Shown here: positions 17,328 to 57,666 of the stretch, piece by piece
Numbering within the stretch: the stretch's first letter is position 1
Layout of the letters: every line of letters begins with the position of its first letter
Assembly: GCA_963703345.1 (NCBI GenBank)
Contig: OY969814.1
Span: 2,219,753 to 2,283,752, forward strand
Reading direction: 5' to 3'
Source: an uncultured Chloroflexia bacterium
Lineage (GTDB): Bacteria > Chloroflexota > Dehalococcoidia > DSTF01 > JALHUB01
DNA: 64,000 nucleotides
Position numbers and translations under genes: made by a program
Notes under the pieces: generated by a model
Databases searched by the model: none
What the model saw: the letters and a program-made list of their open reading frames with translations, nothing else
What the model was told of the DNA's origin: nothing

Positions 17328-17365
17328 GCGGGAATAGCTCAGTTGGTAGAGCATCTGCTTCCCAA
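17328..17365 (+). pseudogene. tRNA-Gly(CCC) 5' half (att site of left island)
   Basis: 38 nt identical to 21830-21867, stopping at the anticodon loop CTTCCCAA. Confidence 0.92.
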
Positions 17366-17513
17366 ACATTTGTTCGCTAACGCTGTCCTTCGAACTCGCA
17401 CACCCTCACCGAAAACCTCACAGTTATCAACTGTTCACGCGCCAGCCGAATAGCGCATAACTGACCGAAACTGGCGGTCGCTGGGCTTCGCGGGCGCGCG
17501 CTTCCTAACCCTG

Positions 17514-21829: not shown

Positions 21830-21905
21830 GCGGGAATAGCTCAGTTGGTAGAGCATCTGCTTCCCAAGCAGAGGGTCGCGGGTTCGAGTCCCGTTTCCCG
21901 CTCCA
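21830..21905 (+). tRNA. tRNA-Gly(CCC)
   Basis: GCGGGAA/TTCCCGC acceptor, GCTC/GAGC D arm, TCTGC-TTCCCAA-GCAGA anticodon arm, GGTTCGAGTCC T loop, encoded CCA. Confidence 0.98.
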
Positions 21906-22227: not shown

Positions 22228-23421
22228 ATGCACAATCGCTCTGGTGAGCTCGCCGGGGCGAACTCGAACGCAGCAACTCAAGCTAGTCTCGTCGATCCGG
22301 CGAAGCTCAAACGACAAATTGTTGCCTCTCTCAGGGCGCAGGGATTTCGCATCTGTGGCGGCGAAATCCTGCCCCCGCGCGATCTCGACAAAGCCAAGAT
22401 ACGCGAGCTTCACACCACCGCGGTCTTTCATCGAATCGAGGTTTCCAGAAGAGGACTCGTAGGCCAAGAACCCCGCCTGCTTAGGCGGTTCGCTTCGGGG
22501 ACCAACGTGGACCCGGCAAGCGTTAGGCCGCGCCTCGTCGAAGTGGAGCCGGATTCTGAGGACGAGCTGCTTTTCAGGTATGCTGCTTTGCACTGGAGTA
22601 TCCCTGTCTCTTCCGGATATGGAAGGAGGATCCGATTTCTGGTTGTCAACGAACAGAACCAGAGTCTCATCGGGCTCTTCGGACTGGGCGACCCAGTGTT
22701 CAGTCTCGCCGCCCGCGACGGATGGGTCGGGTGGGACAAAGAGTCGAGGCGCGAGAGGCTCCGCAACGTCATGGATGCTTTCGTGCTGGGTGCTGTCCCG
22801 CCCTACGCGAGTCTATTGTGCGGGAAGCTCGTTGCTATGCTCGTTTGCAGCTCAGAGGTGAGGCGGGCCTTCGAACGCAAATACGGTGGGGCAGAATCCT
22901 TCATAAGCCGCCGACCATCAGACGGTCGGCTCGCCCTTGTGACTACAACCTCAGCGCTGGGCAGGTCTTCACTCTACAGCCGTATCAAGTACTGCGATCG
23001 CGTACTGTACGAGAGTGCCGGTTATACCAGGGGCTCCGGCGAGTTTCACTTTGCCAACGGGCTCTATTCCGCTCTGACCAGCTATGCTCGTCTTCATTGT
23101 CAGCCAAGCGCGAAACATCCTGCATGGGGGATTGGATTCCGTAATCGGCGCGAGGTCGTGAGGAAAGCATTGAGGGAGCTCGGGTTGTCAGCCGAATGGG
23201 TCTACCACGGGGTTCGTCGGGAAGTGTTCGTCGTTCCACTGGCCCAAAACACAAGAGAGTTTCTTCGGGGGGAGCACTCCGAGCTGCTATGGTCTGAACA
23301 ATCAGCCGACGACCTGTTTAAGTGGTTCCGCGAACGGTGGCTGCTGCCCCGTGCCAGTCGCAACTGCTCGTACCGAGATTTCGACCCGCATTCATACGCA
23401 ATATGGAACAACGCGACCTAG
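22228..23421 (+). CDS. DUF4338 / Druantia DruA-like protein
   Basis: WSIPVSSGYGRRIRFLV, LGDPVFSL.ARD.W.GW, GAVPPY..LL.GKLVA, TTSALGRSSLY.R, GYT.GSG.FH. Confidence 0.8.
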   Translation: MHNRSGELAGANSNAATQASLVDPAKLKRQIVASLRAQGFRICGGEILPPRDLDKAKIRELHTTAVFHRIEVSRRGLVGQEPRLLRRFASGTNVDPASVRPRLVEVEPDSEDELLFRYAALHWSIPVSSGYGRRIRFLVVNEQNQSLIGLFGLGDPVFSLAARDGWVGWDKESRRERLRNVMDAFVLGAVPPYASLLCGKLVAMLVCSSEVRRAFERKYGGAESFISRRPSDGRLALVTTTSALGRSSLYSRIKYCDRVLYESAGYTRGSGEFHFANGLYSALTSYARLHCQPSAKHPAWGIGFRNRREVVRKALRELGLSAEWVYHGVRREVFVVPLAQNTREFLRGEHSELLWSEQSADDLFKWFRERWLLPRASRNCSYRDFDPHSYAIWNNAT

Positions 23422-23479
23422 GGATTCGATCTCCAAAACAGGGAAGCGCGAGCATGGATGACCAGCTTTCGCGAGAGAG

Positions 23480-24631
23480 ATGAACGAATCTGAGACTCCG
23501 TTCGCTGACCTGCCCGAGGCCCTGCTTGACGAGATGCTCTCCCAAACAGAGCGGGTCGCCGAAGGCCTGTTGGGGACTTTCAGATCGGTCAACACGCAGC
23601 GGGCAGCTATGCGCGATGCCCTCAAGAGGCTCAACCTTGTCGACAATGAATCGTCTCTGGGTTATCCTCCTCTGCCGACGACCTGCGCGGTCAACGGCTC
23701 CTACGCTATAGAGAGGCTTCTTACCACCGATCTGGTGGCCTGTGCTGCCGTAGCAATCGAGGGTCTGACGCCGCCTTCAGAACAGCGGCATTGGGAGCAG
23801 CCTCGTCACCTCTCGGTCATTCAATCCGAAGTGCATCACGCCGAGACAGCTACCGTCCTTAGAGCTCTGATGCTGGGTCTTGAGTTGACGCTCGCGACAA
23901 GGGCTCCTCATGATGTTGTCATGCTCGACGCCACCCTCACCCTTCCGGTCATCTACTTCAACCAGGCCCTCCACGCTGCGGCTGGCGCGCCGGAGCTTGA
24001 GATATCGAGCGCTTTCCGCCAGCAGGCGGTCGATTTCCTGCGGTGCTACGCCGCGATTCTTCAATCGGAACGTTCCGACCGGGACTTCGTTGGCCTGCCG
24101 AAGTACTCGACGAGGCGCGAGGTTGGCCGACAAGCCGGATGGTCGGACCAACATGACGACAGGGGCCTACTTACACTCATTCTTGATCCTGGGGAGTTCA
24201 CTAGGCCGCTTTCCCTTGAGCAGCCAGCGCAGCCCTGGCATCTAGGTACGGGGACGCTCCCCCCCGATGTACGTGCAGATGCGGAACGCCTGGCTACGGA
24301 GATCGCGGGCCGCCTGGAGCAAGTTCGGATATTTTACTACAAGCCCCACCGATGGTTGCCTGCCGTTAGGGTGGAAGTGCCTTCAAATGTTGCTGAAAAC
24401 CAACACCGCCTGGCTAGGGTGGTCCAAGGAATAAAGCATCAGTGTGCGGCGGCCGGGATGATGGAGCCCTACCCCTTGTACATGGCGGACCGCATGGTAA
24501 AGGCCGTGGCGCGAGCGTTGCCGGCCTTCAGACAGGTGACGACGCAGCGGATTTCCGAGCAGTACGAAGGCGAGATCGCTGAAGTCTTCTTCGGCTTGCA
24601 CGGCTATAGGTCAGAGTCAGGAGTTCAGTAG
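23480..24631 (+). CDS. NurA-domain nuclease
   Basis: AV(N)GS, E..LA, VMLDATL, GLPK, EPYPLYMADRMVK; coupled to HerA. Confidence 0.8.
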   Translation: MNESETPFADLPEALLDEMLSQTERVAEGLLGTFRSVNTQRAAMRDALKRLNLVDNESSLGYPPLPTTCAVNGSYAIERLLTTDLVACAAVAIEGLTPPSEQRHWEQPRHLSVIQSEVHHAETATVLRALMLGLELTLATRAPHDVVMLDATLTLPVIYFNQALHAAAGAPELEISSAFRQQAVDFLRCYAAILQSERSDRDFVGLPKYSTRREVGRQAGWSDQHDDRGLLTLILDPGEFTRPLSLEQPAQPWHLGTGTLPPDVRADAERLATEIAGRLEQVRIFYYKPHRWLPAVRVEVPSNVAENQHRLARVVQGIKHQCAAAGMMEPYPLYMADRMVKAVARALPAFRQVTTQRISEQYEGEIAEVFFGLHGYRSESGVQ

Positions 24632-24633
24632 TG

Positions 24634-26439
24634 ATGGACACCGGTTCTATGGGCCGAAGCATCGACAAACTCATCGATGACTCGGAGCGCCTTGGAGTCG
24701 TCGGCTCGCCTTCATCGACCGCCGAGCTTGCCATGGACGTCCTGGGTGCCGCTGTCAACAGGAAACTCGTCGGGGAGTTGGCTCTTTTCCGTTTCCTCCA
24801 GGACTCTGCCAGGCACTATGCACTCGGCCAGATTACGGAGGTAAAGCTGCGGAATATCTGGCACGAAGATCCAACGATGCGGAGCCTCATCAGGCAACGC
24901 GGGCGCGTCAACGCTGTGAGCGAGCGCCAAGACACGCACCTCGCTCAGATGATTGTGAGCGCCGTGTTCAAAGACGGCGCCAGCTCCGCGACCTATGAGC
25001 CAAGCATAATGGGAACGGTACCCGCGACAGGTACGACGATTCATGTGGTAACAGACCCTATCCTGGAGGAGATTCTACGACCTTACCGCAGGCAGATCTT
25101 TTACCTTGGTCAGGTGTATGGTTCGAAGCCCAAACTGCCTCTATGGTTCAAGCACTTCGACCGAGGACCAGACGGCGCCGGAGAAGCCTATCATCTCGGC
25201 ATTTTTGGCAAGACCGGTTCGGGCAAGTCGGTCCTGGCGAAGATGATTCTGCTCGCCTACGCCCGCTATCCTCAGATGGCTCTTCTCGTAATCGATCCGC
25301 AGGGCGAGTTTGCGCGCGATATCGGTGGTGGGCACACAACGGGTGAATTCCCCTTGCCGTTAGGAGATCTCGTCAGCTCCCGAGGGAAGCCGGTCCGTGT
25401 TCTCACCGTAAAAAACCTTGTCCTCGATAGATGGGAGCTTTTCCGCCGAATTCTCTATGAGTCCCTTTTCTTTGAGCGCTTGACGATTCCGCGGAGCGAG
25501 AACCGAGAACTGGCGTGTGACATCCTTTCGGAGAAGTTGCAGAAAGCCGGGGTGAAGCTCGCTGAGCTTTGGAATCGAACTTCATTCGACCGCGCGTGGA
25601 CTTTGCTTGGTGACCCCGCTGTGCAACGCAATTTCTATCGAACAGACGCGTCTCGCGCCCGCTTCGACGCCGCTCTGCACGAGGCAGATGCTGACGAGTT
25701 CTACAAGGATTACTGGCGCCCGGTGGCAGAGCTATTCCGCGCCGACAGATCCGGAGCCACAACAGTTGAGAGTGCGCTTGGCTCCTTGTTAGATCCGCAG
25801 AAGGATCAGCGTCCGACTCTGGTAGTGGACCTGTCACGCGAACAGGCTTCCGGGATGTTCTGGAATGATACAATCCAGTCCCTAGTCATCAAGCGGCTTC
25901 TGGACGGTCTAGAGGTCACGGCAGAGCACTTCTTCAAGGGCGGAGAAAGCCTGAATGCGTTAGTAGTGATAGACGAAGCACACCGTCTCGCTCCACGAGA
26001 GTTGCCGACAGACGATGAGGCCGCGAAAGCGGTCCGAGGAGTTCTCATTGACGCCGCACGAACAACGAGGAAGTATGGGTTAGGTTGGCTGTTCATCAGC
26101 CAAACCCTCTCGAGTTTGCACACCGAGATACTCCAGCAGCTCCGCATCATGTTCTTCGGCTTCGGCCTCGGCCTCGGCCAGGAGTATCAGTCTCTCAGAC
26201 AGTTGGTGGGCTCGTCCGGCCCCGCCCTTGACCTGTATCAGCTATTCAGAGATCCTCATTCAGCGTTTGACGCAAAGAGTCGCCAGTACTCTTTTATGAC
26301 CATCGGCCCGGTGAGCCCATTGTCATTCTCCGGGAGCCCCCTTTTCTTCAACGCCTTCAACACGGTGGAGGCGTTCGTAGAAGCCAACGAGATGGAAACG
26401 AATCCAAGGCAGGACAGCGGGCAAGAACCTAGAATCTAG
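24634..26439 (+). CDS. HerA-like (DUF87) ATPase/helicase
   Basis: HAS-barrel-like N-term, HLGIFGKTGSGKS, IDPQGEF, VIDEAHRLAP, RKYGLG..ISQ. Confidence 0.9.
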   Translation: MDTGSMGRSIDKLIDDSERLGVVGSPSSTAELAMDVLGAAVNRKLVGELALFRFLQDSARHYALGQITEVKLRNIWHEDPTMRSLIRQRGRVNAVSERQDTHLAQMIVSAVFKDGASSATYEPSIMGTVPATGTTIHVVTDPILEEILRPYRRQIFYLGQVYGSKPKLPLWFKHFDRGPDGAGEAYHLGIFGKTGSGKSVLAKMILLAYARYPQMALLVIDPQGEFARDIGGGHTTGEFPLPLGDLVSSRGKPVRVLTVKNLVLDRWELFRRILYESLFFERLTIPRSENRELACDILSEKLQKAGVKLAELWNRTSFDRAWTLLGDPAVQRNFYRTDASRARFDAALHEADADEFYKDYWRPVAELFRADRSGATTVESALGSLLDPQKDQRPTLVVDLSREQASGMFWNDTIQSLVIKRLLDGLEVTAEHFFKGGESLNALVVIDEAHRLAPRELPTDDEAAKAVRGVLIDAARTTRKYGLGWLFISQTLSSLHTEILQQLRIMFFGFGLGLGQEYQSLRQLVGSSGPALDLYQLFRDPHSAFDAKSRQYSFMTIGPVSPLSFSGSPLFFNAFNTVEAFVEANEMETNPRQDSGQEPRI

Positions 26440-27061
26440 CAGTTTCTGACCCGTGCTCACCGGGGCTTTCTTCCAATGACGCGAGGATCTTGTCGACCAT
26501 GGGCATCAAGTCTCGCCGCAGTTCGTCCCTCGTTCCTTCGTTCTCGATGACGGTCAGCGACAGGTCACCCCGAGCTCGTAGGGCGTCTAAATCGTCATCG
26601 CCATACCATTTCTCCATGTCAACTCGGGAGATGTATCTTGCCCGGTCAACCTGCCCACGCGTGAGGTTGCGTTGCCATGCAATGTCCCACGATGATGAGA
26701 GGTATAGGACAAGCGATTGGTCAATGATCCGTTTCGGAAGACAATCGAACAGGGGTGCGTAGACGTGGCGCGCAACCTCCGCTATCACCAGATCGGCCCG
26801 CTCGGTTTCCAGCTTGGCGTGCAGCCAGTTATCCAACTCCTGCCAGATGGAGTCGTCAGTGATCTCGAATCCCCCGTCTTCAGTGGGGCGATGGCGCCTG
26901 AACGAGGGGTCTTTCTGGACCAAGACCCAGAGTACCGGGAAGTCGTGCATGACTGCTATCTCCCCTTCGAAGCCCCGCAGACGCAGCTCATCGGTCAGGA
27001 TCCTTGTCGCGAGAGACTTGCCAGTGCAGGGACGACCAACGACGAAGACAAACCGTGCCAA
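26429..27061 (-). CDS. P-loop nucleoside/nucleotide kinase-like protein
   Basis: VVGRPCTGKS, LYL....IAWQRNLTR lid motif, VIENEG; TTG start after AAGGAG (alternative GTG 27097). Confidence 0.72.
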   Translation of the reverse strand: MARFVFVVGRPCTGKSLATRILTDELRLRGFEGEIAVMHDFPVLWVLVQKDPSFRRHRPTEDGGFEITDDSIWQELDNWLHAKLETERADLVIAEVARHVYAPLFDCLPKRIIDQSLVLYLSSSWDIAWQRNLTRGQVDRARYISRVDMEKWYGDDDLDALRARGDLSLTVIENEGTRDELRRDLMPMVDKILASLEESPGEHGSETARF

Positions 27062-27115
27062 AGCCCCTCTCCTTGAACTGGCACTGACGAGCGTCACAAC
27101 GCCACGTCAACTCGG

Positions 27116-27973
27116 TTACGACCGCCCCCGCCTTCCCCACACGGCTATGGAGAGTGCTGCAAGCGACAAAACGAGCGAAAAAAAGGATACCGCTAGCGCG
27201 GTCATTGGCCAACCACCCAGTATATCGCCTTCCGGTTTGATAACTGGGGCTATTGCGACGACAGCTAGGGCCGCTATGACCGCGGCCAGCACCGCCACCA
27301 CAATCGTGATGAAGGTGATCGACTGCGCTCTGAGTTCGTCACTTTGCCTTGTCACGCGCGCTCCGAGTTCGTCACTTTGCCTTGTCACCCTCTCGACGTT
27401 CTCGACCATCTCGCGGGGAAAACTCCGCAGCCGATGAAGATCAAAATCCCCCAGAGAATCTCGGCCCTGCTTCATCGGTATGCTGATTCCTTTCCTGAAC
27501 GGGGTGGTCTTGACGAAATCCATCGCGAAAAGCTCTTTGCGATAATCGAGAACTACTTCGCGATCGGCCAGATTATATACTGGTGCGAACAGTTCTCCTG
27601 ACCATCCCGGGTCAACCTGAAGAGCTCCCACCCATAGCAAGCCCTCATAAACGCTCGACACTTTCAGAGCCCATCGTGCTATCAAGAATCTTGGCAGGTT
27701 CAACTTCTCGTAAGTACTGACAATCGCCATTTGATAAGGAGCGATTTTAAGGGGAGCGTTTTCGGCTATTACCACATCGACTCCACCCAGACGAGCGTGA
27801 CTTCCCAGCGTTAGGTTGTATCTTGCTGCTCGCAGGTGTTCCTGGTGGAATGGATCGATGAGCGGCGGGACTACTTTGGTGGAGTAGTATTCGATCTCGT
27901 CAGATAGGAGCACCGCTCCGTGCCATCCCCCCCGGCTCTTTCGCTGGTCTTCTTCAAGGATGTCTTCCTGCAT
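27116..27973 (-). CDS. dCTP deaminase/dUTPase-fold domain (catalytic residues lost) + coiled coil + two C-terminal TM helices
   Basis: LLSDEI, IDPF, AARYNLTLG, STYEKLNLP, VDPGWSG...YN; hydrophobic ITFITIVVAVLAAVIAALAVV and MTALAVSFFSLVLSLAALSIAVW. Confidence 0.82.
   Translation of the reverse strand: MQEDILEEDQRKSRGGWHGAVLLSDEIEYYSTKVVPPLIDPFHQEHLRAARYNLTLGSHARLGGVDVVIAENAPLKIAPYQMAIVSTYEKLNLPRFLIARWALKVSSVYEGLLWVGALQVDPGWSGELFAPVYNLADREVVLDYRKELFAMDFVKTTPFRKGISIPMKQGRDSLGDFDLHRLRSFPREMVENVERVTRQSDELGARVTRQSDELRAQSITFITIVVAVLAAVIAALAVVAIAPVIKPEGDILGGWPMTALAVSFFSLVLSLAALSIAVWGRRGRS
27332..27388 (-). repeat. 33-bp-period coding duplication (RVTRQSDEL x2) in linker
   Basis: GAGTTCGTCACTTTGCCTTGTCAC at 27332 and 27365. 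Confidence 0.9.
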
Positions 27974-28327
27974 GGATCCCTCCAGTAAGCGCGGTTCAGA
28001 GTAACGGACCCAACCCGAGGTTCATATTCGATGAGTCCGCGACAAAGCGCTTGACCCCGACGCGAAAACCAGTTGACGGCCTCCTCCCAAGGAGCCGTCC
28101 AGCCTCTTCCGGAGGCAAACGATGCCCGCTCAATCTTGGGCCGGTGCTGCGGTGCGATGCGGTTGCGATATCGACAGACCGTTGAAAGAGGGCTCCAGGC
28201 TACGTGCGCCGGGCGCCGCGATGGTAGGTGAGAACCCCTCTCGTTCTCTCAACACGGTGTGGGCAAGTCTATGCCGCCTGTCGACGATTTCCACTGCAGG
28301 GCCGACCGATTGCGAAGACAAAGCGTT

Positions 28328-29272
28328 TCAAACTGGGGCCGGAACGCTATTCGGCGGACTCATCTCCTTTGCGGGCATTGACTTTATCGCTTCGCCACAA
28401 CCGCCATCGCAGCCGTTGTCCGGTACGTGGTTTGCCTCAAAGCAGCTAGGGCACACCATTTGGCCATTGCGAGTGTAGACGCGGCGCATAAGATTCGCCA
28501 GGGTCAGCTCTTCGCCAATCAGCCTATCCAATAGTCCGTCCTCTACCATTGCCCTGCCCAACTTATTGATTCCCTCTGCTCGAATGCCTACTTTCCGAAG
28601 GATCGAGCAGCTCCACGACACCACATCGGCCAACTCCTCGATCATGTGAGCGCGATGACGATCGATCTCTTTGCTACCTTCTGCGGGAGCATCGCAGAGT
28701 ATGCGTATATCTTCCGCAACCTCGGCGACCTCCTCTAGGTAATGAAACCCGATGTCGCTGTCTAGACGCAGCTGGTCATCCTTGTCGAAGATCTCCTTGA
28801 AGAGGCCCTCAAGGTCACAAAGGGTCTTGGGCACGTGCCCCTTGGATTTCTTTCTATTTCTGGTCAACTGGTCAGCGACGTGTTCTTTGTCAAGAGGGCC
28901 TCTTAGTGACGCGCATTGGCAGCCAGGGCTCAGGCAATGGGGACAGATCAGCGGATATTTGTAGAACGCAATCGTCCCAAGGCCGTCAAGCGCTCCCAAA
29001 TGCGGATCGGTAATAGGCTCGAATGAGGCTGGAACCTGCTCCTTCTGGCCGAGCTTCCTTACAAAGATAGTCAGCCAACACCAGGCTTGCGCTAAGCCTA
29101 CTAGTTGGGCCGAAAGGACCTCCTCGCGAATCCCTTCTCCTACCGCTGCCGCATGCTCTGCGACCTTCAACCAGATTCGCTCCAGGGATCGCTTTCCGGC
29201 CAACTCCCCGTAGAGTGACCAAAGCCCATCTGCCCAGGCATCAAGGTTGTCGTCGTCAGGAGCAGTAACCAT
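28328..29272 (-). CDS. tandem MazG-like nucleotide pyrophosphohydrolase with Cys clusters
   Basis: Second domain LEEVAEVAE..IEELADVVSW; first degenerate VAEHAAAVGE..GLAQAWCW; CPHC...CQC and CPSC...C...C. Confidence 0.78.
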   Translation of the reverse strand: MVTAPDDDNLDAWADGLWSLYGELAGKRSLERIWLKVAEHAAAVGEGIREEVLSAQLVGLAQAWCWLTIFVRKLGQKEQVPASFEPITDPHLGALDGLGTIAFYKYPLICPHCLSPGCQCASLRGPLDKEHVADQLTRNRKKSKGHVPKTLCDLEGLFKEIFDKDDQLRLDSDIGFHYLEEVAEVAEDIRILCDAPAEGSKEIDRHRAHMIEELADVVSWSCSILRKVGIRAEGINKLGRAMVEDGLLDRLIGEELTLANLMRRVYTRNGQMVCPSCFEANHVPDNGCDGGCGEAIKSMPAKEMSPPNSVPAPV

Positions 29273-30347
29273 AGGAGAATACTCCTCTTCTCTTGCCCGC
29301 TACCTCAGGGGCGTGCGTCGTCCGTCGATCAACCAACTCTTCATTTGTGGGACCCGTTCCGATAAACACCACCGGGACCCCTAGTTCCCCCTCAATTTCT
29401 CGAGCAAATCGGCGCGCACTTTCGGTGAGGTTCGCAAAATCAGTCTGCCCCTTGTTCTCGAAATCAATGTAGTCCACCCCGTGAACGGCAATAGCCGTAG
29501 GTCGATTCACCGCCGCCGCCCGTTTCACAAGGGCGAGGTCGAAAGTCGCCACTCGCCTGGGGTTCTTGGTGACAGTAGTCAACTCCATTATTGGATAGGG
29601 ATACCCGCTCAACTCCCTCAGTCGATCCCAGGAGATCTCGTCACCGATCTCGCCGGAATTGCCGGCGACCCTTATTGGGAAAGTGCGGACCGCCATGATT
29701 ACATCGTCGACGGCCAACGGACTCAATCCAACCTCGCCTAGAAATGACGCTGCCGTAGTGTCGCGGCTCGTGCAATATGGGAACTGAGCCGTGTGGTAAA
29801 GCGAGAGGCCATAACCTTGAGTGCCTTCTACTAAGGTTTTCGCCCCGCGATCGACCGCACTGTTGACTTCGTCGGCGACGTCCGTGAGAAATAGACGCAG
29901 CTCGGGCACGTCTTTAGCGAGTCTGAAAGATTCGTCGCGAAGAGCCCTGCGAGCGACGGCTGAACCTGTCCCGGACAACGTCGAGCCGCATCTCTCCCTG
30001 AGAAGGGTGCGTGTCTCAGCAGCCCGGTCAGTCTCCTCAATGATGCCCGTGTTTCGATCGATGCCAATTCTGTCCGGGCGCACGCCGAACGTCGCTAACT
30101 CATCAAAGAACACGCCAACATCCAGCAAACCGCCAGCAGCAATCAATAGCCGGGTCCTGGAGTTTACAAGTCCGGCCGGGATGCTCCGCAGTTGAATTCT
30201 CTTGCCGCCCATGTCAACGGTGTGGCCGGAGTTGGGTCCGCCGCAGCGCACTACGTATTCGACATCATCAGTCATACTCAGGTGGGAGCAGATTTTGCCC
30301 TTGCCCTCTCCTCCGTATTGAGCGCCCACGATCACCGTCACGCCCAT
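29256..30347 (-). CDS. divergent short-type adenylosuccinate synthetase homolog (PurA/PurZ-like)
   Basis: GAQYGGEGKGK, GPNSGHTV, EGTQG..LS, PYCTSRD, RTFPIRVAGNSG, TTVTKNPRRV, IGTGP. Confidence 0.9.
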   Translation of the reverse strand: MGVTVIVGAQYGGEGKGKICSHLSMTDDVEYVVRCGGPNSGHTVDMGGKRIQLRSIPAGLVNSRTRLLIAAGGLLDVGVFFDELATFGVRPDRIGIDRNTGIIEETDRAAETRTLLRERCGSTLSGTGSAVARRALRDESFRLAKDVPELRLFLTDVADEVNSAVDRGAKTLVEGTQGYGLSLYHTAQFPYCTSRDTTAASFLGEVGLSPLAVDDVIMAVRTFPIRVAGNSGEIGDEISWDRLRELSGYPYPIMELTTVTKNPRRVATFDLALVKRAAAVNRPTAIAVHGVDYIDFENKGQTDFANLTESARRFAREIEGELGVPVVFIGTGPTNEELVDRRTTHAPEVAGKRRGVFSYGYCS

Positions 30348-31921
30348 TGCAGACCTCCTGAGACACTCGTCTCTTTGGCTCGCGGCATTCGAACGCCTTC
30401 ATGATGATTCGGCGCTGTCGGCACGATTAGATAGCCTTCATCGTCGTTGCCCAGCGCTTCGTAGTCACCCGCAAGATAGAAATAACCGACGATGGCCGAG
30501 GTTATTGCATCCAGTTCATCATGACTAAGCGACTGATCAGCAAGCGGCCCCGTTATCCCAAAGTCGAGGAGCGACATCCTAAGCTCCTCTCTCCCTGTAC
30601 TCTTCCGCGGTATTCGAAGAATGTCTTGGGCGGCCCCGGGGAAGCTCTCGATGACTTCAAGACCCTGTTGCCGCAATCTGTTCGCCAGCGTGATGCCCCG
30701 ATTCGTCAAAGCGATCATTGTCGGCAATTGACACCAGAACACGGAGATCCCGCGCTGCTTGAGCTCCAGCTCCGAGTGCCGGTAGATCTTCCGAATGCCC
30801 CCGTCCGTGGGTGCAGGCAAATTGAGCGGAGAGTCAATAGATACTACGTCGGGTTTTGCCTGCAGCGTCAGTTCCACGAGGTCATCGTCCGTTCGCACCA
30901 CTTTGGTCGTTGCGTGTCTGCCTTTGAGCAGCGCCCAGCCCGTCGGCCGCTTTGGTGATGCGGCGAGATCAATGCCGACTATCCCGCGCTCTGTTCCAGT
31001 CTTTCGGAGAAGCGACAGTATGCGGTGCTTCCGGGGAGGGGTGACAGCTCGTCCGGAAGCCAACGGGGCGAGGGCCATACGGAGTGCCTCTTCGACTTGG
31101 GTGGCCGTCATGTCCATGCCGACAATTGGCCCGGGTGGCTCACTTGGGCTGCTGCTCAGCAAACGGCGACTTGCCTCCGAGTATGCGAAGTTTAGCAGTT
31201 GAACAAGGTTGACGGTATCCCACATGTTGTAGCGCACTAGTTGTTCGAAAGCGGACTGCTGGCCACGCTTATACGCGAACCAAAGGGCGGCGGCCTGCCT
31301 TCCTGTAATGGCCTGAGATTCCGCATCTCTGGTGAGACCGAGCGCCTGCTCGATGCGCTTGAGGCCTCCCCGTAGCTCGAGGCGGGCGAGAAGAAAACGT
31401 AGATCCACATGAACCAAGGGTAGATCAAGCTTCGGGTAGGCGGACCGCAAGAAGGGGATGTCGAACTGGCTCCCATTGAATGTCACCAGGATCCCGAAAC
31501 GACGCACTGCGTCAGGGAAGCGCTCCAAGTTGACGCCCTGGACGAAGCATTCGTAGCCTTCCTTGCTGTACAGACCTACCATGGTCAGTTCGTCGTAATA
31601 GCGACTGAGCCCAGTCGTCTCGACGTCAAGGAAAGCAATGCGGTCAGAGAACTCGCGAACTAGGCGCCATCGTTCGCCAGATGGGAACAGCGGAGCAAAG
31701 TAGTCCAAACGACGGTGATCGAGAGCCTGCTTTGACTCGCGGAGCCCCGACAGCAGTCGGCGCGAAGGCCCGACCAGGCGCTCGGTCGAAATCGGGGCGG
31801 GATTCAGCGGACGGTCAACCCAAGCGAAGTAGTCCGACCAGGAATGGATTCCCTGGGACCACAGTCGCTGCTCGGTTCGCCTGCCGACTCCGTGTAGGTG
31901 GCTGAAGGTATTGGTGAGCAT
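30338..31921 (-). CDS. HhH + YprB-like RNase_H_2 (DEDD) exonuclease fused to DUF429 (RNase H-fold) domain
   Basis: HLHGVGRRTE, AFLDVETTGL, TFNGSQFDIPFL, HVDL, GGLK.IE, YN.WD; C-term GIDLAAS, IDSPL, IESFPG, DELDA. Confidence 0.82.
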   Translation of the reverse strand: MLTNTFSHLHGVGRRTEQRLWSQGIHSWSDYFAWVDRPLNPAPISTERLVGPSRRLLSGLRESKQALDHRRLDYFAPLFPSGERWRLVREFSDRIAFLDVETTGLSRYYDELTMVGLYSKEGYECFVQGVNLERFPDAVRRFGILVTFNGSQFDIPFLRSAYPKLDLPLVHVDLRFLLARLELRGGLKRIEQALGLTRDAESQAITGRQAAALWFAYKRGQQSAFEQLVRYNMWDTVNLVQLLNFAYSEASRRLLSSSPSEPPGPIVGMDMTATQVEEALRMALAPLASGRAVTPPRKHRILSLLRKTGTERGIVGIDLAASPKRPTGWALLKGRHATTKVVRTDDDLVELTLQAKPDVVSIDSPLNLPAPTDGGIRKIYRHSELELKQRGISVFWCQLPTMIALTNRGITLANRLRQQGLEVIESFPGAAQDILRIPRKSTGREELRMSLLDFGITGPLADQSLSHDELDAITSAIVGYFYLAGDYEALGNDDEGYLIVPTAPNHHEGVRMPRAKETSVSGGLQWA

Positions 31922-32139
31922 CCTGCGACGGTTATTCTACGCGAGGCCCGACTCGCGTGCTAGCCTTCGCCGACGACATACGCGTGCGGGGGCCCTCTTA
32001 CACAACCACGTCGTGTGCTGCCGCCGGGCATTCTGTACTCTACCATCATGCAAGGAGTCATCATTACCATTCTGTCCGCCAGGAATTTGCCAGTCACGTC
32101 CCGTTACCCTACCATTGGCGGTTGAAAGGTTGACGTTGG

Positions 32140-33618
32140 ATGACAGATTCCGACCCTTCAACGCATTGGCCGAGCCACATCTCGCCTCTTGAGTTCCGGT
32201 ACCTGCCTTCTGGGGACCCGAGAAGCGAACGAGTCAGGCAGTATCTCACTGAAGAAGCCTATGTCCGCTATCTCACCAGGGTCGAGTCCGAGCTGGCAAG
32301 GGCACTTGGTAGGCTGGGGGTATGCCCTCAGGAAGTTGCGGATTCTATTTCGAGGGCAGCTGATGCTGTCAGCGCCGTGGAAGTGTACCACGAAGAGCGC
32401 ACTACAGGTCATCAGATCCCGGCCCTGGTAAACTGCATACGTCGAAGGGTTCCCCCCGATGCGGCGAATTTCGTTCACCTTTTTGCCACGTCGTCTGACA
32501 TCATGGACACCGCGAACGCCTTACGCTACAAAGAATTCGCCAGGGACGTTCTGCTCGTTGACCTCATTCGGCTGGAGCGAACGCTTATCGAACTAGCCGA
32601 GATGCACGCTAGCACAAGACAGGTGGGCAGAACTCATGGGATGTTTGCTGAACCCTTGACATTTGGCTTCGCGCTAGCGTTCTACGTTGATCGGCTCGGC
32701 AATCGAATCCGCAGCATTAATGACGCTCGGAACAACCTACGAGGCAAACTCTCCGGCGCAGTGGGGGCCTACAATTCGATGTCGCTTGCGTTCCCGGACG
32801 ACCCTACGGTTCTGGAATCCGACGTTCTGGGCCACCTGGGCTTGCAGCCCTCAGACACTCGCATTTCAACGCAGATTGTTCAACCTGAATACTTGACAGA
32901 CTTCGTTTATTCGGTCGTGACGTGTCATTCCGTGATCGCGAATCTCGCCGATGACATGAGACACTTACACAGAAGCGAAATCGCGGAGGTGCGAGAACGT
33001 AGTGGCGAGGGCCGGGTGGGCTCTTCAACAATGCCTCGCAAGATCAACCCCCAGTCCTTCGAGACCGTAAAGAGCATGTGGAAGGTGACGATGCCGCGCC
33101 TCACTACCGTGTTGCTCGATCAGATATCCGAGCATCAGCGAGACTTGACGAACTCGGCCTCGATGCGCTTCATGCCCGAGATTCTGGCGGCTGTCGATTT
33201 CTCAGTTTGTCTTCTTGGCGACGCAATGCAGCGTCTGGAAGTAGGGGTTGACAGCATGAAGTCGAACCTCGCCTCTGCCTCGCGGGAGACCGTAGCAGAG
33301 CCGCTCTACATCTTGCTCGCGCTCAACGGCTGCCCGAACGGTTTCGCGAAAGCGCGCGACCTGGTAGGCCAATCTATCGCTACTGGTGTGCCGGTGTTAG
33401 ACCTTTGCGAGGTTGATGAAGATGTGCGTCCGATCCTCGCCCGACTGCGCCAGGAACATGTTGCTATCCTTCAGGACCCGAGCCTCTATGTGGGAGACGC
33501 GGTGAGGAGAGGCAACGAAACGTGCGCCCTCTGGCGCGCCCAAGTCAACCGGCTAGAGGCCGCATTGCAGCGAGAAAGAGCGGAGCGTTCGGCTTCGTCT
33601 CTTGGGCCGAGGCTGTGA
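32140..33618 (+). CDS. purB: adenylosuccinate lyase homolog (accessory PurB)
   Basis: ISPLEFRY, HLFATSSD, GRTHG..AEP.TFG, SGAVG, STQI, GSSTMPRKINP, QRDLTNSASMR. Confidence 0.88.
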   Translation: MTDSDPSTHWPSHISPLEFRYLPSGDPRSERVRQYLTEEAYVRYLTRVESELARALGRLGVCPQEVADSISRAADAVSAVEVYHEERTTGHQIPALVNCIRRRVPPDAANFVHLFATSSDIMDTANALRYKEFARDVLLVDLIRLERTLIELAEMHASTRQVGRTHGMFAEPLTFGFALAFYVDRLGNRIRSINDARNNLRGKLSGAVGAYNSMSLAFPDDPTVLESDVLGHLGLQPSDTRISTQIVQPEYLTDFVYSVVTCHSVIANLADDMRHLHRSEIAEVRERSGEGRVGSSTMPRKINPQSFETVKSMWKVTMPRLTTVLLDQISEHQRDLTNSASMRFMPEILAAVDFSVCLLGDAMQRLEVGVDSMKSNLASASRETVAEPLYILLALNGCPNGFAKARDLVGQSIATGVPVLDLCEVDEDVRPILARLRQEHVAILQDPSLYVGDAVRRGNETCALWRAQVNRLEAALQRERAERSASSLGPRL

Positions 33619-33699: not shown

Positions 33700-34317
33700 T
33701 TAGGATGACGTTTTGCGGCCGCTCGTGGTGCCCGTTCTCTCGTCGGCAAGAATCTTCGCCCACTGCTCTTTGGACTCTTTCTCGCCGTAAGGCCACTCCG
33801 CGAAGGTGAGAACCAGGACCACTATCGTGTAAACCATCCCGAGAGCGATGACGCTTACAAAACCCTCCCTGGGATTGGGCTTAAGGTCGAAGGCTACCTG
33901 TACCAGAAATGGCAGCGCACCCGCTGCGATTCCTAGAAGGAGGAAGACCATAGCTTGCGCTCCTGAATATGCACGTATGGCTACGCGTCGCCGGAGCTTG
34001 CGGTATATCTCCCATCGCTGTTCCCATTGTGACTGGCCAGTCGCAGAGAGATAAGCAGTGATCACTCGTAATTGGACCTTCAGTGCCTGGTGCAGGCAAA
34101 ACAGCGCTAGAAGAACAAGCAAGAGCAGAAGAGAGATACCGTAGGTAATCCATCCAACATCGCTGGCTGTCGCATTAGCCTTCTCCACTATCCAGCCGGC
34201 GCCGACGCCGAAAATCGTAACTGCCAGGATGGTTATGAGAAGCCTCTGATTCACTATTTGATTGACCTCGCCGTGAAGCTTCGTGGCATCGAGTTTCTCA
34301 CCTTCTTCTGTCTGCAC
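33700..34317 (-). CDS. four-TM membrane protein
   Basis: GTG start after AGGAGG; four hydrophobic helices; overlaps the Nudix stop. Confidence 0.75.
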   Translation of the reverse strand: MQTEEGEKLDATKLHGEVNQIVNQRLLITILAVTIFGVGAGWIVEKANATASDVGWITYGISLLLLLVLLALFCLHQALKVQLRVITAYLSATGQSQWEQRWEIYRKLRRRVAIRAYSGAQAMVFLLLGIAAGALPFLVQVAFDLKPNPREGFVSVIALGMVYTIVVLVLTFAEWPYGEKESKEQWAKILADERTGTTSGRKTSS

Positions 34318-35290
34318 GACGCGGCCTCCTGTGTGTCGAGTCCTGGCCGGAATACTTCCCCATTTCTCTCTCAAGGGCAGCAAGTGATGTCGCATTACCG
34401 AAACAGCGGGACATCGCAAGCAAGAGGCGATATCTCGACGTCGGGTGCCAGCGGTAACCGCGTCGTGTCTGCACAATTAGACGTGCCACGTTGGTCGGCA
34501 GAAGAGGGACGAATCGCAGACGTTTCAACTCTGCTCTACTACGGTCCCTTCGTTTTCTCCACGACGTCATAAGATCGCCAGACGAGAAGGCCGTCTTTAG
34601 ATAGGCTACGATTGCAGGATTGGCTATCGCCGATTCGATGACCACGGCGAGGAGCGCACAATCGCTTGGTTCGGCACCTGCAGGAAAGAGTTCCTCGTTT
34701 ACGCCTCGCGCTGCCGCTGCGTGAAATGCTGCATCCCCATAGGCCAAATCCTCAGGCGAAAGTTGCTCTTCAAAGGAGGCACACCAATGGAGTGGGTGGT
34801 ATTCTACCCACTCGCTCCTCTGGGCAAGCACTAGCATTTCATCCGCGGTCTCCACGATGCCGTGAATGCTGACAATGTTTGGAGTTGAGGCGGTTTTGGA
34901 TTCGACGAGGGTCCGGATAAGCTCAAGCCGCGAGCCTATCCCCCCGTTCGACCTGAGATACTCGTGAATCGGTTGCACCTCGGACCATTCGGTGGCTTGG
35001 ACACTGAGACGAATCTTCTCCCCCTGAGACGTGTAGGTTCGAAGCGACAGTTTGCGTTCGCTAATCTCGTCACGGTGATGTTCAAGCCATGAATCTCTGA
35101 GTGCACGCCAACTATCCGAGATACCTCCTACTCTGCGTTGAATTCTGACACGCGTGTCTCGAATTTCCCACCCTGGCGATAGGCTTGGCGCTCTAGTCCC
35201 TTCGATTGCTCCATCCACGATCAGCTGGGGCATAGGAATTTGGGTCGCCCTGCCGCCGCTCGGGACTGCGTAGAATTCCTGAAAATCCAT
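34298..35290 (-). CDS. divergent Nudix-fold protein
   Basis: IHGIVETAD..LVLAQRS..V.YHP..W.ASFEE, degenerate Nudix box AAARGVNEEL. Confidence 0.68.
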   Translation of the reverse strand: MDFQEFYAVPSGGRATQIPMPQLIVDGAIEGTRAPSLSPGWEIRDTRVRIQRRVGGISDSWRALRDSWLEHHRDEISERKLSLRTYTSQGEKIRLSVQATEWSEVQPIHEYLRSNGGIGSRLELIRTLVESKTASTPNIVSIHGIVETADEMLVLAQRSEWVEYHPLHWCASFEEQLSPEDLAYGDAAFHAAAARGVNEELFPAGAEPSDCALLAVVIESAIANPAIVAYLKTAFSSGDLMTSWRKRRDRSRAELKRLRFVPLLPTNVARLIVQTRRGYRWHPTSRYRLLLAMSRCFGNATSLAALEREMGKYSGQDSTHRRPRRADRRR

Positions 35291-35296
35291 CGCAGT

Positions 35297-36667
35297 TCAG
35301 GAGAGATTCGTCGGTCGAATGCTATGAGCATCCATGCGTCGTGCCGCCTTTGTGATTGTGTTGATTACGCCTGCCCGATATTGCCCTCTAGTCCATTGGG
35401 CCAAGGCCTGATATCCGCCGACTAGTGCGGGAACGCTCTGTCCTACTTCATTATGCGAAATCATCGGAGCGACGGCCGCAGCCAACAGAGCCCAGGCCGG
35501 GATTGACCGAGGAGTAGAATTCGTCAATTTCTTCTCCCAAGCTCGCTCCAGCGCTGTCGCGTGCTCGCGAATTGCGTCCTCTAGTTGCTCTTCATGCCTG
35601 TCATCCTCGTGCCATCGTGCCAACGCTTCTTGATAGCGCTGGCGCGTAAGATCCGTTTCCTGGAACACTAGCGTCACTTTAGGCCACTCCAACTCCAGCG
35701 GATCCCATTTGAACAATCCCGCGACTCCCTTGAGCCAAAGACGATTCGAGGAAGACTCCCTCTGATTCTCATCGAATGGGTACAAGGCGTCGCAGGGCCT
35801 ATCCAGGAAGAGGCTTACCGGCACTGAATCTGGCAGAGCCCCGACCGAAGCACCATCGGGAGCCAGCGTACGTTGCACGGCCGCATTCCACGCGTGAATA
35901 ACCGTGTTCCTTATAGCTCTATATGTTGGGGCATCAAGTCCATCCCTGTGCTCCTCAAGACAGGTCATGACCGCCGACCGAATCCCACGATCTGGCACAT
36001 TGTCGTCGATGAACTTTTTCGTGCTATGGACCACCGTCCAGCTACTCACCCCTAGTTCTTCCGGCCCGCGAGCGTACAACTCTTCCAAAATGTCGTACAT
36101 TGTAACCGGGGCCCGAGTCTTTGCTCGCTTCGTCGCCGAGGTTTCGTCCCGGGAGAAGTACTCAATGGCCCTTAGCGGTCCCGACAACCTCGGGTCCAGG
36201 TCGCCAATACCTCTTGGATACGGCTCAACAAGCATCCTCTCAAGGTCAATACTCCCCGACGACAGCAAGAGGTCGGCAAATCGTGTTATGGGTTGAGCCG
36301 TTCCAAGCGAGGATGAGATCCAGCCAGGCTTGAGCGTCCGCCTCAGTCCCCAGGTCGCGATCCCAAAGTTCCCCAAGGCTCGACCGGTCTTGTCGGGATT
36401 TGCCACGAGTTCGAAAGGTGAGAATTGCGAATCCCGTGCCAAGCGCGCCAGCTCCTCGGGTAGGGCGTCATCCACGAAAAGTGCTTGCACAACGGGACTG
36501 TCGAACAGATGCACATCATTGAGCACGAGCGTGTTCCCGAAGAGCATATGGAGCCTAACGATTCTCTGGGCATTCTCCTTAAGTTGCTGAACGTTCGGTT
36601 GCGGAAGTCCATGCCAAGATTGGGGACGGAAATACTCCCCATCGAACCACTGAGCATAGCGACGCAT
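35297..36667 (-). CDS. hypothetical protein (456 aa)
   Basis: Long ORF, GGAGAAGG RBS, 6 bp from the Nudix gene. Confidence 0.75.
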   Translation of the reverse strand: MRRYAQWFDGEYFRPQSWHGLPQPNVQQLKENAQRIVRLHMLFGNTLVLNDVHLFDSPVVQALFVDDALPEELARLARDSQFSPFELVANPDKTGRALGNFGIATWGLRRTLKPGWISSSLGTAQPITRFADLLLSSGSIDLERMLVEPYPRGIGDLDPRLSGPLRAIEYFSRDETSATKRAKTRAPVTMYDILEELYARGPEELGVSSWTVVHSTKKFIDDNVPDRGIRSAVMTCLEEHRDGLDAPTYRAIRNTVIHAWNAAVQRTLAPDGASVGALPDSVPVSLFLDRPCDALYPFDENQRESSSNRLWLKGVAGLFKWDPLELEWPKVTLVFQETDLTRQRYQEALARWHEDDRHEEQLEDAIREHATALERAWEKKLTNSTPRSIPAWALLAAAVAPMISHNEVGQSVPALVGGYQALAQWTRGQYRAGVINTITKAARRMDAHSIRPTNLS

Positions 36668-36789: not shown

Positions 36790-37524
36790 TCAACCCCGCA
36801 CTCCAGAAAGAGATGCGATGATTTCCTCTTGTCCCCAATTAGGATCGATAGTCGGGACAATTCTGCCACTCTCGCCTTTTACGTACGGGCCCAAAGTCTT
36901 CCTGTGCTCCTCTGGGCAGAAAACCACCGCCACGTTGTCGAGAAGGAAACCGAAGTCCCCGCGGTGTCGCCACTCGCGCTCCCACCAAAACTCCTTCTTC
37001 GAGTTGCGCCACGTACCCATGCCCTCGACGAACGGAGCGATACCAGCGATAGGCTGGTCTGAGAATCGCTCACCTTCTGCGGCTTGTCTGACCAATTCCC
37101 AGACGTTCTCCGTTAGCCATTCGTGACCGCCGGTCATATCGACGTACCAAACAGGATTCACGCCCAGCTCGCGCGCCTTTCGCTTGGTGAATGCCAGTCC
37201 GAAGGGTTCGAGCTGATTGCGTCAACCCTTGATCGGACACACGAAGCTCCATGCTTGCTCCAGAGGTGCCTCAGTGAAACACACTACCCGCTGGGACTTC
37301 AACGCCGTTTGGTGGTCTTTCGGACGTAGCTTCCCTTGGCGGAGAACCTTCTCTAGCTGAATGACGGCCGCGCCCATGGGAGTACGTGCGAGCAGCGTCT
37401 GATTAGCAAGAATGCTCTGTAGGTTCTCTAGCGCCGCCTTGCCGTTCCCTTGCCGTGTCCAGTGAATAACGAAGGTGGACAGATCGGTGCGCCGGCGCAA
37501 CAATTCCTCGATCTCCCATTCCAT
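36790..37524 (-). pseudogene. AbiGi-like protein interrupted by in-frame TGA
   Basis: HWTR..VCFTEAPL..IKG*RNQLEPFGLAF.K..GVNPVWY..WEREWR; both track ORFs share one frame, TGA at 37222-37224. Confidence 0.72.
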
Positions 37525-57620: not shown

Positions 57621-57666
57621 CTTCCCAAGCAGGTTGTCGCGGGTTCGAGTCCCGTTTCCCGCTCCA
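57621..57666 (+). pseudogene. tRNA-Gly 3' half (attR of right island)
   Basis: CTTCCCAAGCAG-gtt-GTCGCGGGTTCGAGTCCCGTTTCCCGCTCCA, 43/46 identical to 21860-21905. Confidence 0.92.

Follow-up and report, generated by a model that had tools for sequence, protein, structure and literature searches.

We have analysed a 64,000-nt stretch of DNA (hereafter the window) from an uncultured Chloroflexia bacterium (GTDB Dehalococcoidia; DSTF01; JALHUB01), corresponding to positions 2,219,753-2,283,752 of the forward strand of contig OY969814.1 (assembly GCA_963703345.1). An earlier note on this DNA had proposed that six genes in a tRNA-bounded island form a new nucleotide-signalling defence system. The six open reading frames (ORFs) are present as described (Table 1): a two-domain nuclease, a short adenylosuccinate-synthetase paralogue (here PurA*), a tandem MazG-like protein, a dCTP-deaminase/dUTPase-fold protein with membrane helices (Dcd-TM), a nucleoside monophosphate (NMP) kinase-like protein and a second adenylosuccinate lyase, PurB. 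The reported overlaps were also found (10 bp between nuclease and PurA*, 17 bp between PurA* and MazG), and the families were recovered with Pfam and NCBIfam or, for MazG and the kinase, by profile searches. However, the conserved unit is smaller than the six-gene set: it consists of the PurZ0-type synthetase and Dcd-TM, usually together with the double nuclease and a nucleotide kinase. Judging from sequence, we see about an even chance that the PurZ0-type enzyme of this mobile cassette makes a nucleotide of the Z base (2-aminoadenine), which would serve directly as the defence signal for the membrane protein.

Table 1. Genes of the cassette region and ends of the island (window positions)
Feature	Position	Strand	Place in the cassette or island	Supporting data
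tRNA-Gly(CCC)	21830..21905	+	left island end	
NMP-kinase-fold P-loop protein	26429..27097	-	in the slot of a deoxynucleoside-kinase-family gene elsewhere	start possibly TTG at 27061
Dcd-TM: dCTP-deaminase/dUTPase fold, long helix, two membrane helices	27116..27973	-	core part	Pfam DCD E 3.1e-7
Tandem MazG-like NTP pyrophosphatase with Cys clusters	28328..29272	-	apparent local addition	acidic metal motif kept in C-terminal half
PurA*: short PurZ0-type adenylosuccinate-synthetase paralogue	29256..30347	-	core part	Adenylsucc_synt E 3.8e-46
Two-domain nuclease: YprB/MrfB-like DEDDy exonuclease (RNase_H_2) and RNase H-like DUF429	30338..31921	-	usual core part	RNase_H_2 E 3.5e-29, DUF429 2.3e-6
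Second adenylosuccinate lyase (PurB), divergent	32140..33618	+	optional part	Lyase_1 E 5e-34; GRTH and GSSTMPRKINP motifs
tRNA 3'-end copy, 46 bp, 93.5% identical	57621..57666	+	likely right attachment site	

Composition and spread of the cassette

A profile built from 50 homologues detected 416 relatives of PurA* in GTDB genomes, 524 in a partial scan of metagenomes and 233 in viral contigs, and the best 80 of each were used. Among the cellular or metagenomic loci, 139 extend at least 900 bp downstream; 121 of these have Dcd-TM adjoining PurA*, 9 have an AAA-ATPase protein in that position, and no locus has both. Where a downstream Dcd-TM lies on the same strand, it starts within 200 bp of PurA* in 119/122 loci. 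In the 55 genome loci with 4.5 kb flanks (25 of the 80 were dropped as too short), Dcd-TM is found in 51, the nuclease in 38, an RlmJ-like protein in 15 and a kinase of any kind in 40. The kinase belongs to an NMP-kinase-like family or to the deoxynucleoside-kinase family, or is fused to the nuclease or to PurA*. The co-occurrence proposed in the earlier note thus holds widely for PurA*, Dcd-TM and the nuclease, but not for MazG, which was found in 0/245 other loci.

The hosts of PurA* include Chloroflexota, Acidobacteriota, Nitrospirota, Bacillota, Verrucomicrobiota, Planctomycetota and several archaeal lineages. A close PurA* occurs in 4 of 401 genomes from an even sample (host's class, own genome included), with Dcd-TM adjacent in each, and was not found in three genomes of the same genus; the three other genomes of the class bring no new evidence of linkage, since their contigs apparently were already among the loci of the profile search. 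No recurring phage gene cluster was found around the cellular PurA* loci, and on these grounds we rejected their reading as prophage Z-clusters. Many Acidobacteriota cassettes are solitary, behind a divergent helix-turn-helix (HTH) gene. Cassettes of the Acidobacteriota type often lie beside a Cas1-family gene or beside genes that were labelled dnaN/gyrB by sequence reading, which suggests insertion hot spots (L057, L120, L127, L141, L143, L144; L047, L071, L079, L132, L138, L139).

Several variants deserve mention. The AAA-ATPase protein has about 700 residues, with an N-terminal domain of no recognised family (L084:9756-11921, L136, L154, L155, L156, L160); its PurA* partners form one branch (Shimodaira-Hasegawa-like approximate likelihood ratio test, SH-aLRT, 99), and in L084 and L156 there is, in addition, a PHP-DUF429-like-kinase fusion. 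A second Dcd-TM gene, convergent or tandem, lies within one locus in L015, L021, L023, L024, L059 and L064. A sister module in five genomes of the Dehalococcoidia class (L289-L293) combines an NMP-kinase::PurA* fusion with DUF7002 and an upstream IrrE/M78 peptidase gene, sometimes with an RlmJ-like protein or PurB, and also occurs on two rhizobial plasmids near a Pua-like/metallophosphoesterase gene (plasmid loci L003-L005). A further Rhizobium plasmid locus (L002:5401-16722) reads folE-purA-purB-queE-IMPDH-nitrile hydratase-queC-queD, resembling a 7-deazapurine-nucleoside cluster, and its PurA keeps Asp13.

The synthetase

That this PurA is divergent, as had been claimed, was borne out by alignment with the PurZ proteins of phiVC8 and S-2L and the PurZ0 of Archimedes. 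Residues Y11, G13, R221, I225 and T257 of PurA* stand against W, D, K, T and G in the host PurA, and a short insertion follows V227; the set F/Y11, S/G13, R221, I225 and T257, which includes the loss of Asp13, is common to PurA*, PurZ0 and PurZ. Asp292, a residue of the NTP-base loop which we take to select GTP as donor, is present in 141/141 near-complete cellular relatives and in Archimedes PurZ0, and is Q or N in the S-2L and phiVC8 PurZ. In the same 141 relatives, position 13 is Ser in 110 and Gly in 31, a count that is partly by construction because this position formed part of one search pattern; a pattern-free alignment has G or S there in all 25 rows listed. The other positions were not part of the pattern, and among them R221 is invariant, I225 is kept in 140 relatives and T257 in 136. 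The accommodation of dGMP is attributed to residues S14, F12 and T262 (bioRxiv 10.1101/2025.10.22.683976, in part), and the features F/Y12 and T262, in phiVC8 numbering, are present in PurA* as Y11 and T257. From its active site, PurA* is predicted to convert dGMP, aspartate and GTP into N6-succino-2-amino-dAMP (dSMP).

PurA* falls outside the curated families: its best NCBIfam score, against PRK04293, is 346.5 bits (cut-off 368), and for PurZ (NF038379, which demands more than 300 bits and an ATP-type Gln/Asn) it reaches 212.7 bits with Asp at 292. In a quick tree of 109 rows, which has long branches and leaves out the canonical archaeal short PurA, the cassette enzymes stand apart (SH-aLRT 91, not strong) from most phage enzymes and from the group with PurZ0 and PurZ (94), and all cassette and phage enzymes join at 99 against host and biosynthetic PurA. 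Four archaeal Ser/Gly sequences have been placed basal to PurZ and PurZ0, with no function given there (PMC12884076, section 24). A housekeeping identity was rejected: Gly13 replaces the catalytic Asp13, and the host has a canonical purA (C1:102572-103540). Neither the cassette purA nor the cassette purB is the only copy in the genome, as separate host purA, purB and dcd-like genes are 29%, 33% and 32% identical to their cassette counterparts, and another PurA is present in 9/10 PurA* hosts checked.

The candidate receptor and effector

The AlphaFold model of Dcd-TM (mean predicted local distance difference test, pLDDT, 88.6) comprises a beta domain, a 60-residue helix leading into the first membrane segment, and one further helix; the hydrophobic segments begin at residues 224 and 260. 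Its best Foldseek match is 8y1w (E 9.6e-13), and the top matches are Thermococcus-type dUTPases and Dcd enzymes, whose fold places the nucleotide sites between the subunits of a homotrimer. TIGR02274 gives it 40.2 bits against a cut-off of 92.8. Ser111, Arg115 and Glu138 (E. coli numbering) have roles in Dcd, and in the window protein they are replaced by V105, Y109 and P131, respectively. The same holds for 123/123 relatives, which have V, I or T in place of the motif-II Ser, Y or H in place of Arg115 and Pro in place of Glu138, and 121/123 have one to three C-terminal hydrophobic segments. The window protein has lost the motif-II Ser and kept the motif-III Asp (D121), and motif V (RGxxGFGS) was not found in it or in four relatives checked. 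On these residues the deaminase function is lost, and the description of a dead Dcd fused to membrane helices stands to that extent; Dcd-TM is predicted to be an inactive nucleotide receptor and effector. Descent from phage DutZ is not favoured, since the family profile scores the host Dcd at 42 bits and three phage Dut at 22-33 bits.

Distant Dcd-TM proteins are also found at loci that lack PurA*. They are fused to a guanylate kinase, with a DNA methylase and an HD protein as neighbours, or follow a thymidylate kinase, or follow radical-SAM and uracil-glycosylase-like genes with Mrr adjacent (L277:3792-4985, L278:6717-7529, L281:6222-7034, L280:6088-6711). Their position beside other nucleotide enzymes suggests a reusable module, and they are possible further systems with the same class of receptor.

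The nuclease and its alternate

Both active sites of the nuclease (D99, E101, D154, Y231, D235 and D318, D363, E425, D471) are matched in 87/87 relatives. Its best match in the PDB is MrfB (8un9, E 4.2e-8), an exonuclease to which the N-terminal domain is related, and we predict from sequence that the protein is the source of deoxynucleoside monophosphates. In many Chloroflexota loci the nuclease slot holds instead a 260-residue protein with no Pfam family and a DPDNG motif (L015:11962-12747 and 18 similar loci). A sequence search of the PDB gave no match for it; the fold search alone did, relating its model (pLDDT 90.6) to the amino-methyltransferase RlmJ (Foldseek E 1.3e-4, Z 10.9, root-mean-square deviation 4.4 over 211 residues). 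Nuclease and RlmJ-like protein do not occur together in any of the 55 genome loci.

MazG, kinase and PurB are variable parts

The tandem MazG scores 17.7 bits in Pfam (cut-off 22), and its family profile matches MazG-type structures with either half. The family has 264 representatives, the best being 33-38% identical, and the acidic motif of the second half is invariant. We rejected it as a core part, because the family profile matched the window alone among the ORFs of the 245 loci plus the window; many of these loci are short, and MazG is thus better called not found than absent elsewhere. At E 1e-15 the profile hits one of 401 genomes of the phylum, the host itself, and a search for close homologues of the window protein returned none. 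The gene breaks the usual adjacency of PurA* and Dcd-TM and looks like a local insertion, which does not suit the standing, threshold-setting role that had been given to it. It parallels MazZ, the enzyme that turns dGTP into dGMP for use by phage PurZ (PMC8342488, in part).

The window kinase has no Pfam match over the cut-off. In hhalign it matches the family of cassette kinases (91.7%); its identity to the usual cassette kinase is 21%, and it has two homologues only, on short contigs. An NMP-kinase-like protein had been correctly recognised here, and cassette kinases are common; the window protein itself is, by sequence, a distant stand-in and no orthologue of the usual one.

PurB had been regarded as a dedicated component, and yet it lies within 4.5 kb of PurA* in 5/160 loci. 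One further arrangement has the cassette directly behind a housekeeping-type purB. The window PurB is 43-47% identical to the PurBs within two archaeal cassettes and 33% to that of the host, so that a cassette-linked PurB lineage exists. This recurrent link favours a desuccinylated Z nucleotide as the end product.

Genomic setting

The island had been described as tRNA-bounded, and both ends were located (Table 1); its GC content is 0.55-0.59 across approximately 19-43 kb versus 0.644 genome-wide. Several other 46-bp copies of the tRNA-Gly 3' end are found elsewhere in the genome, and a 41-bp copy of its 5' half at 17328-17368 suggests a second element upstream. According to PADLOC, DruA, a HerA-like ATPase and a Dsr1-like protein share the island with the cassette. 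DruA is followed by a NurA-like gene (under cut-off) and the HerA-like ATPase (22228..26439, +); the remaining Druantia genes are not in view. DruA and HerA are therefore confirmed as neighbours, but the third reported neighbour, an 'Abi-like' gene (36790-37524, -), is a single frame broken by one in-frame TGA and gave no noteworthy family match in the Pfam, NCBIfam and PADLOC scans of the window proteins, its AbiGi-like label being our presumption. Between it and the cassette (33700-36667, -) lie a membrane protein (258-residue ORF), a 330-residue protein, which we presume to be NUDIX-like, and a 456-residue protein, none with a convincing family match.

Within the minus-strand run a 354-bp gap divides MazG from Dcd-TM, making a single transcript uncertain. 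A scan for promoters and terminators gave nothing beyond chance, and no RNA run was listed among the sequencing runs searched. A low-depth DNA run, possibly the source sample and thus not independent, covers 29/30 bins and spans this gap. PADLOC had no match for PurA*, Dcd-TM, MazG, kinase or PurB; the nuclease alone gave a match, of partial length (PDC-S44, E 2.9e-10).

A proposed mechanism

Signalling by a Z nucleotide would proceed in five steps. During infection the DEDDy/DUF429 nuclease would degrade DNA to dGMP, to which MazG in the window may add dGMP from dGTP, or it may clear the signal. PurA*, with aspartate and GTP, would form N6-succino-2-amino-dAMP, from which the PurB of the cassette or the host would release dZMP, and kinases of the cassette, host or phage would raise this to dZTP. 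Finally, dZTP would bind the inactive Dcd/dUTPase-fold trimer, whose helices would damage the membrane, so that the infected cell stops or dies. Host enzymes finish the dZTP pathway for phage PurZ (PMC8342488, in part), which explains why PurB and the kinase could be optional. After dZTP, the succinylated intermediate is the likeliest candidate for the signal. Synthase and putative sensor-effector genes are linked, and the effector slot can be swapped (Dcd-TM or AAA-ATPase), which fits a signal-effector design. The cassette may also fire on dZTP made by a phage with a Z genome. A broader proposal, to which we give somewhat less than an even chance, is that cells of both prokaryotic domains use Z as an immune messenger, as dZTP from the dGMP of DNA breakdown, with a dead Dcd/dUTPase-TM trimer as receptor and the same receptor class in further systems.

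Points against the proposal, and its alternatives

Several points weigh against this scheme. Pyrimidines are the usual ligands of the Dcd/dUTPase fold. Of the 123 Dcd-TM relatives, 109 retain the VDPG aspartate, and the closest structures, deposited as dUTPases, likewise lack the deaminase Glu, so that Dcd-TM may yet act as a hydrolase. By sequence this function is probably lost, the retained aspartate being the chief gap in the word 'dead'. The sugar specificity of PurA* is uncertain, as the equivalent of Arg303 is K or R in 130/141 relatives and N in the window. Nine of the 139 loci have neither Dcd-TM nor the AAA-ATPase protein, and the swap for an RlmJ-like protein is unexplained, there being no obvious supply of dGMP in those 15 loci. 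Finally, as detailed below, the enrichment in defence genes is modest.

The retained VDPG aspartate speaks for a different, unlikely scheme of antiviral poisoning, in which dGTP and dATP are drained, a flood of dZTP stalls or corrupts phage replication, and Dcd-TM is a membrane-anchored dNTP pyrophosphatase like DutZ. In 18/80 viral PurZ0-type loci there is a gene for a soluble dUTPase-fold protein that retains GRSS and motif V and has no membrane segment. DutZ-type phage enzymes hydrolyse dATP and dGTP (PMC12884076, section 20), and the trimeric dUTPase fold is thus able to take purine dNTPs; Z-cluster toxicity in bacteria has been noted (PMC8342488, in part), and the window MazG adjoins PurA* as MazZ adjoins PurZ in S-2L. 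However, the cassette proteins have lost both motifs that the phage Dut keep, and replacement by an unrelated AAA-ATPase protein suits an effector slot better than a hydrolase.

The RlmJ-like protein may methylate the signal. Its alternation with the nuclease in one slot, together with one variant that has a PolX/PHP-DUF429-kinase fusion, would also be expected if Z or methylated Z marked the host's own DNA and the nuclease cut unmarked DNA. We hold this to be the least probable of the alternatives: no DatZ- or DpoZ-like cluster is among the recurring neighbours of the cellular loci, the most constant partner is a membrane protein, and the loci with the methyltransferase fold have no nuclease.

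The same anatomy as in direct signalling would serve a guard in which a constitutive Z nucleotide holds Dcd-TM off and phage enzymes that destroy or consume it free the effector. Panoptes-type systems pair a constitutive synthase with a 2TM effector, and a divergent HTH gene flanks 44 of our loci. This inverse arrangement is improbable in our view, since the nuclease as usual input suits a substrate made by infection better, and dZTP made without pause should find its way into the DNA of the host (PMC8342488, in part).

Does the cassette defend the cell at all? Proximity to defence genes was measured with PADLOC (E 1e-10) on neighbour proteins within 5 kb of PurA* loci. Around 18 Chloroflexota loci, 19/145 proteins (drawn at random from 154) matched, against 6/144 (from 170) in 18 control stretches of the host's own genome (Fisher p 0.011), whereas 30 loci of other phyla gave 13/144 (from 208) against the same 6/144 (p 0.15). 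With generic matches removed by hand, the Chloroflexota figures were 14 versus 2 proteins (p 0.003) and 8/18 versus 2/18 loci (p 0.06); these p values include two proteins among the 14 that were later recognised as a competence protein and a member of the cytidine-deaminase family, and without them 12 proteins in 6 loci remain. Enrichment in defence islands, which the earlier note had proposed to score, thus has p 0.011 by protein and 0.06 by locus in Chloroflexota and 0.15 in other phyla, and the support is modest because the control comes from a single genome and related loci do not count as independent. Clear defence neighbours include type I restriction genes, DrmD, Ppl, Gabija-like, Argonaute and PglX.

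A role in purine salvage, DNA-damage clean-up or nucleoside secondary metabolism would agree with the short PurA and PurB of the 7-deazapurine-type cluster on the Rhizobium plasmid, with the kinship of the exonuclease to the repair enzyme MrfB and with the many Acidobacteriota loci amid housekeeping genes. It is nevertheless very improbable, given that the PurA of the Rhizobium cluster has Asp13 in place and falls outside the group of cassette enzymes, that the hosts have their own purA, and that a patchy spread over two domains with swapping of slots is unlike core metabolism. Some role in defence, whichever the mechanism, is quite probable.

Relation to known systems

No system with this gene set was found in the literature, in agreement with the earlier note, although an earlier computational mention is possible as most subscription papers lay outside the search. 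If the proposal is true, the cellular Ser/Gly13 relatives of PurZ, which the literature mentions solely as basal branches (PMC12884076, section 24), gain a function; the origin of the phage Z-genome pathway is tied to host-virus conflict; and the Z base, so far known as a disguise of phage genomes, serves as an antiviral alarm.

The cassette shares with phage Z-clusters (PurZ0 with DutZ/DmtZ; PurZ with MazZ/DatZ) a PurZ0-type active site and a dUTPase-fold or MazG-like gene beside the synthetase. In contrast to them, it is cellular, lies outside prophage contexts and has no recurring DpoZ- or DatZ-like neighbour; its partner with the dUTPase fold is of Dcd type, is fused to membrane helices and has neither GRSS nor motif V; and it differs from phage PurZ in its GTP-type Asp in place of the ATP-type Gln/Asn. 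The archaeal short PurA (PRK04293) and ToyG/ToyF-type pairs have the same short architecture, reflected in the best NCBIfam score, but PurA* has lost Asp13, has the PurZ-type T257, I225 and R221, scores under the family cut-off and is extra to a housekeeping copy. In CBASS, Pycsar and Panoptes systems with 2TM effectors, a nucleotide-binding domain fused to membrane helices lies by a nucleotide-making enzyme, much as predicted for the cassette, which unlike them has no cyclase or nucleotidyltransferase.

Two systems come closer. An operon linked to PUA-like immune domains encodes an adenylosuccinate synthetase, read as making N6-succinyl-AMP in a one-sentence mention (bioRxiv 10.64898/2026.01.15.699771, in part), and probably corresponds to our kinase-PurA* fusion and DUF7002 loci L003 and L005. 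This PUA-Calcineurin-HAD neighbourhood likewise ties a synthetase operon to a predicted sensor of modified nucleotides, but has a different branch of PurA* and neither Dcd-TM nor the DUF429 nuclease. In Kongming (KomABC), a catalytically dead HAM1 pyrophosphatase senses dITP (10.1101/2024.12.20.629578, in part): a base-modifying enzyme acts on a dNMP, kinases give the triphosphate and a dead nucleotide-sanitising enzyme is the receptor. The parts differ: adenosine deaminase, HAM1 and SIR2 in Kongming, none of which PADLOC, NCBIfam or Pfam detected among the six window proteins, and a PurZ0-type synthetase, a Dcd/dUTPase fold and membrane helices in the cassette, which usually also encodes its own nuclease and kinase. 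What is new is the predicted signal and the predicted receptor fold within the known scheme of base-modified nucleotide signalling; if the proposal holds, dZTP would be the second base-modified dNTP messenger after dITP, with a new receptor fold to sense it.

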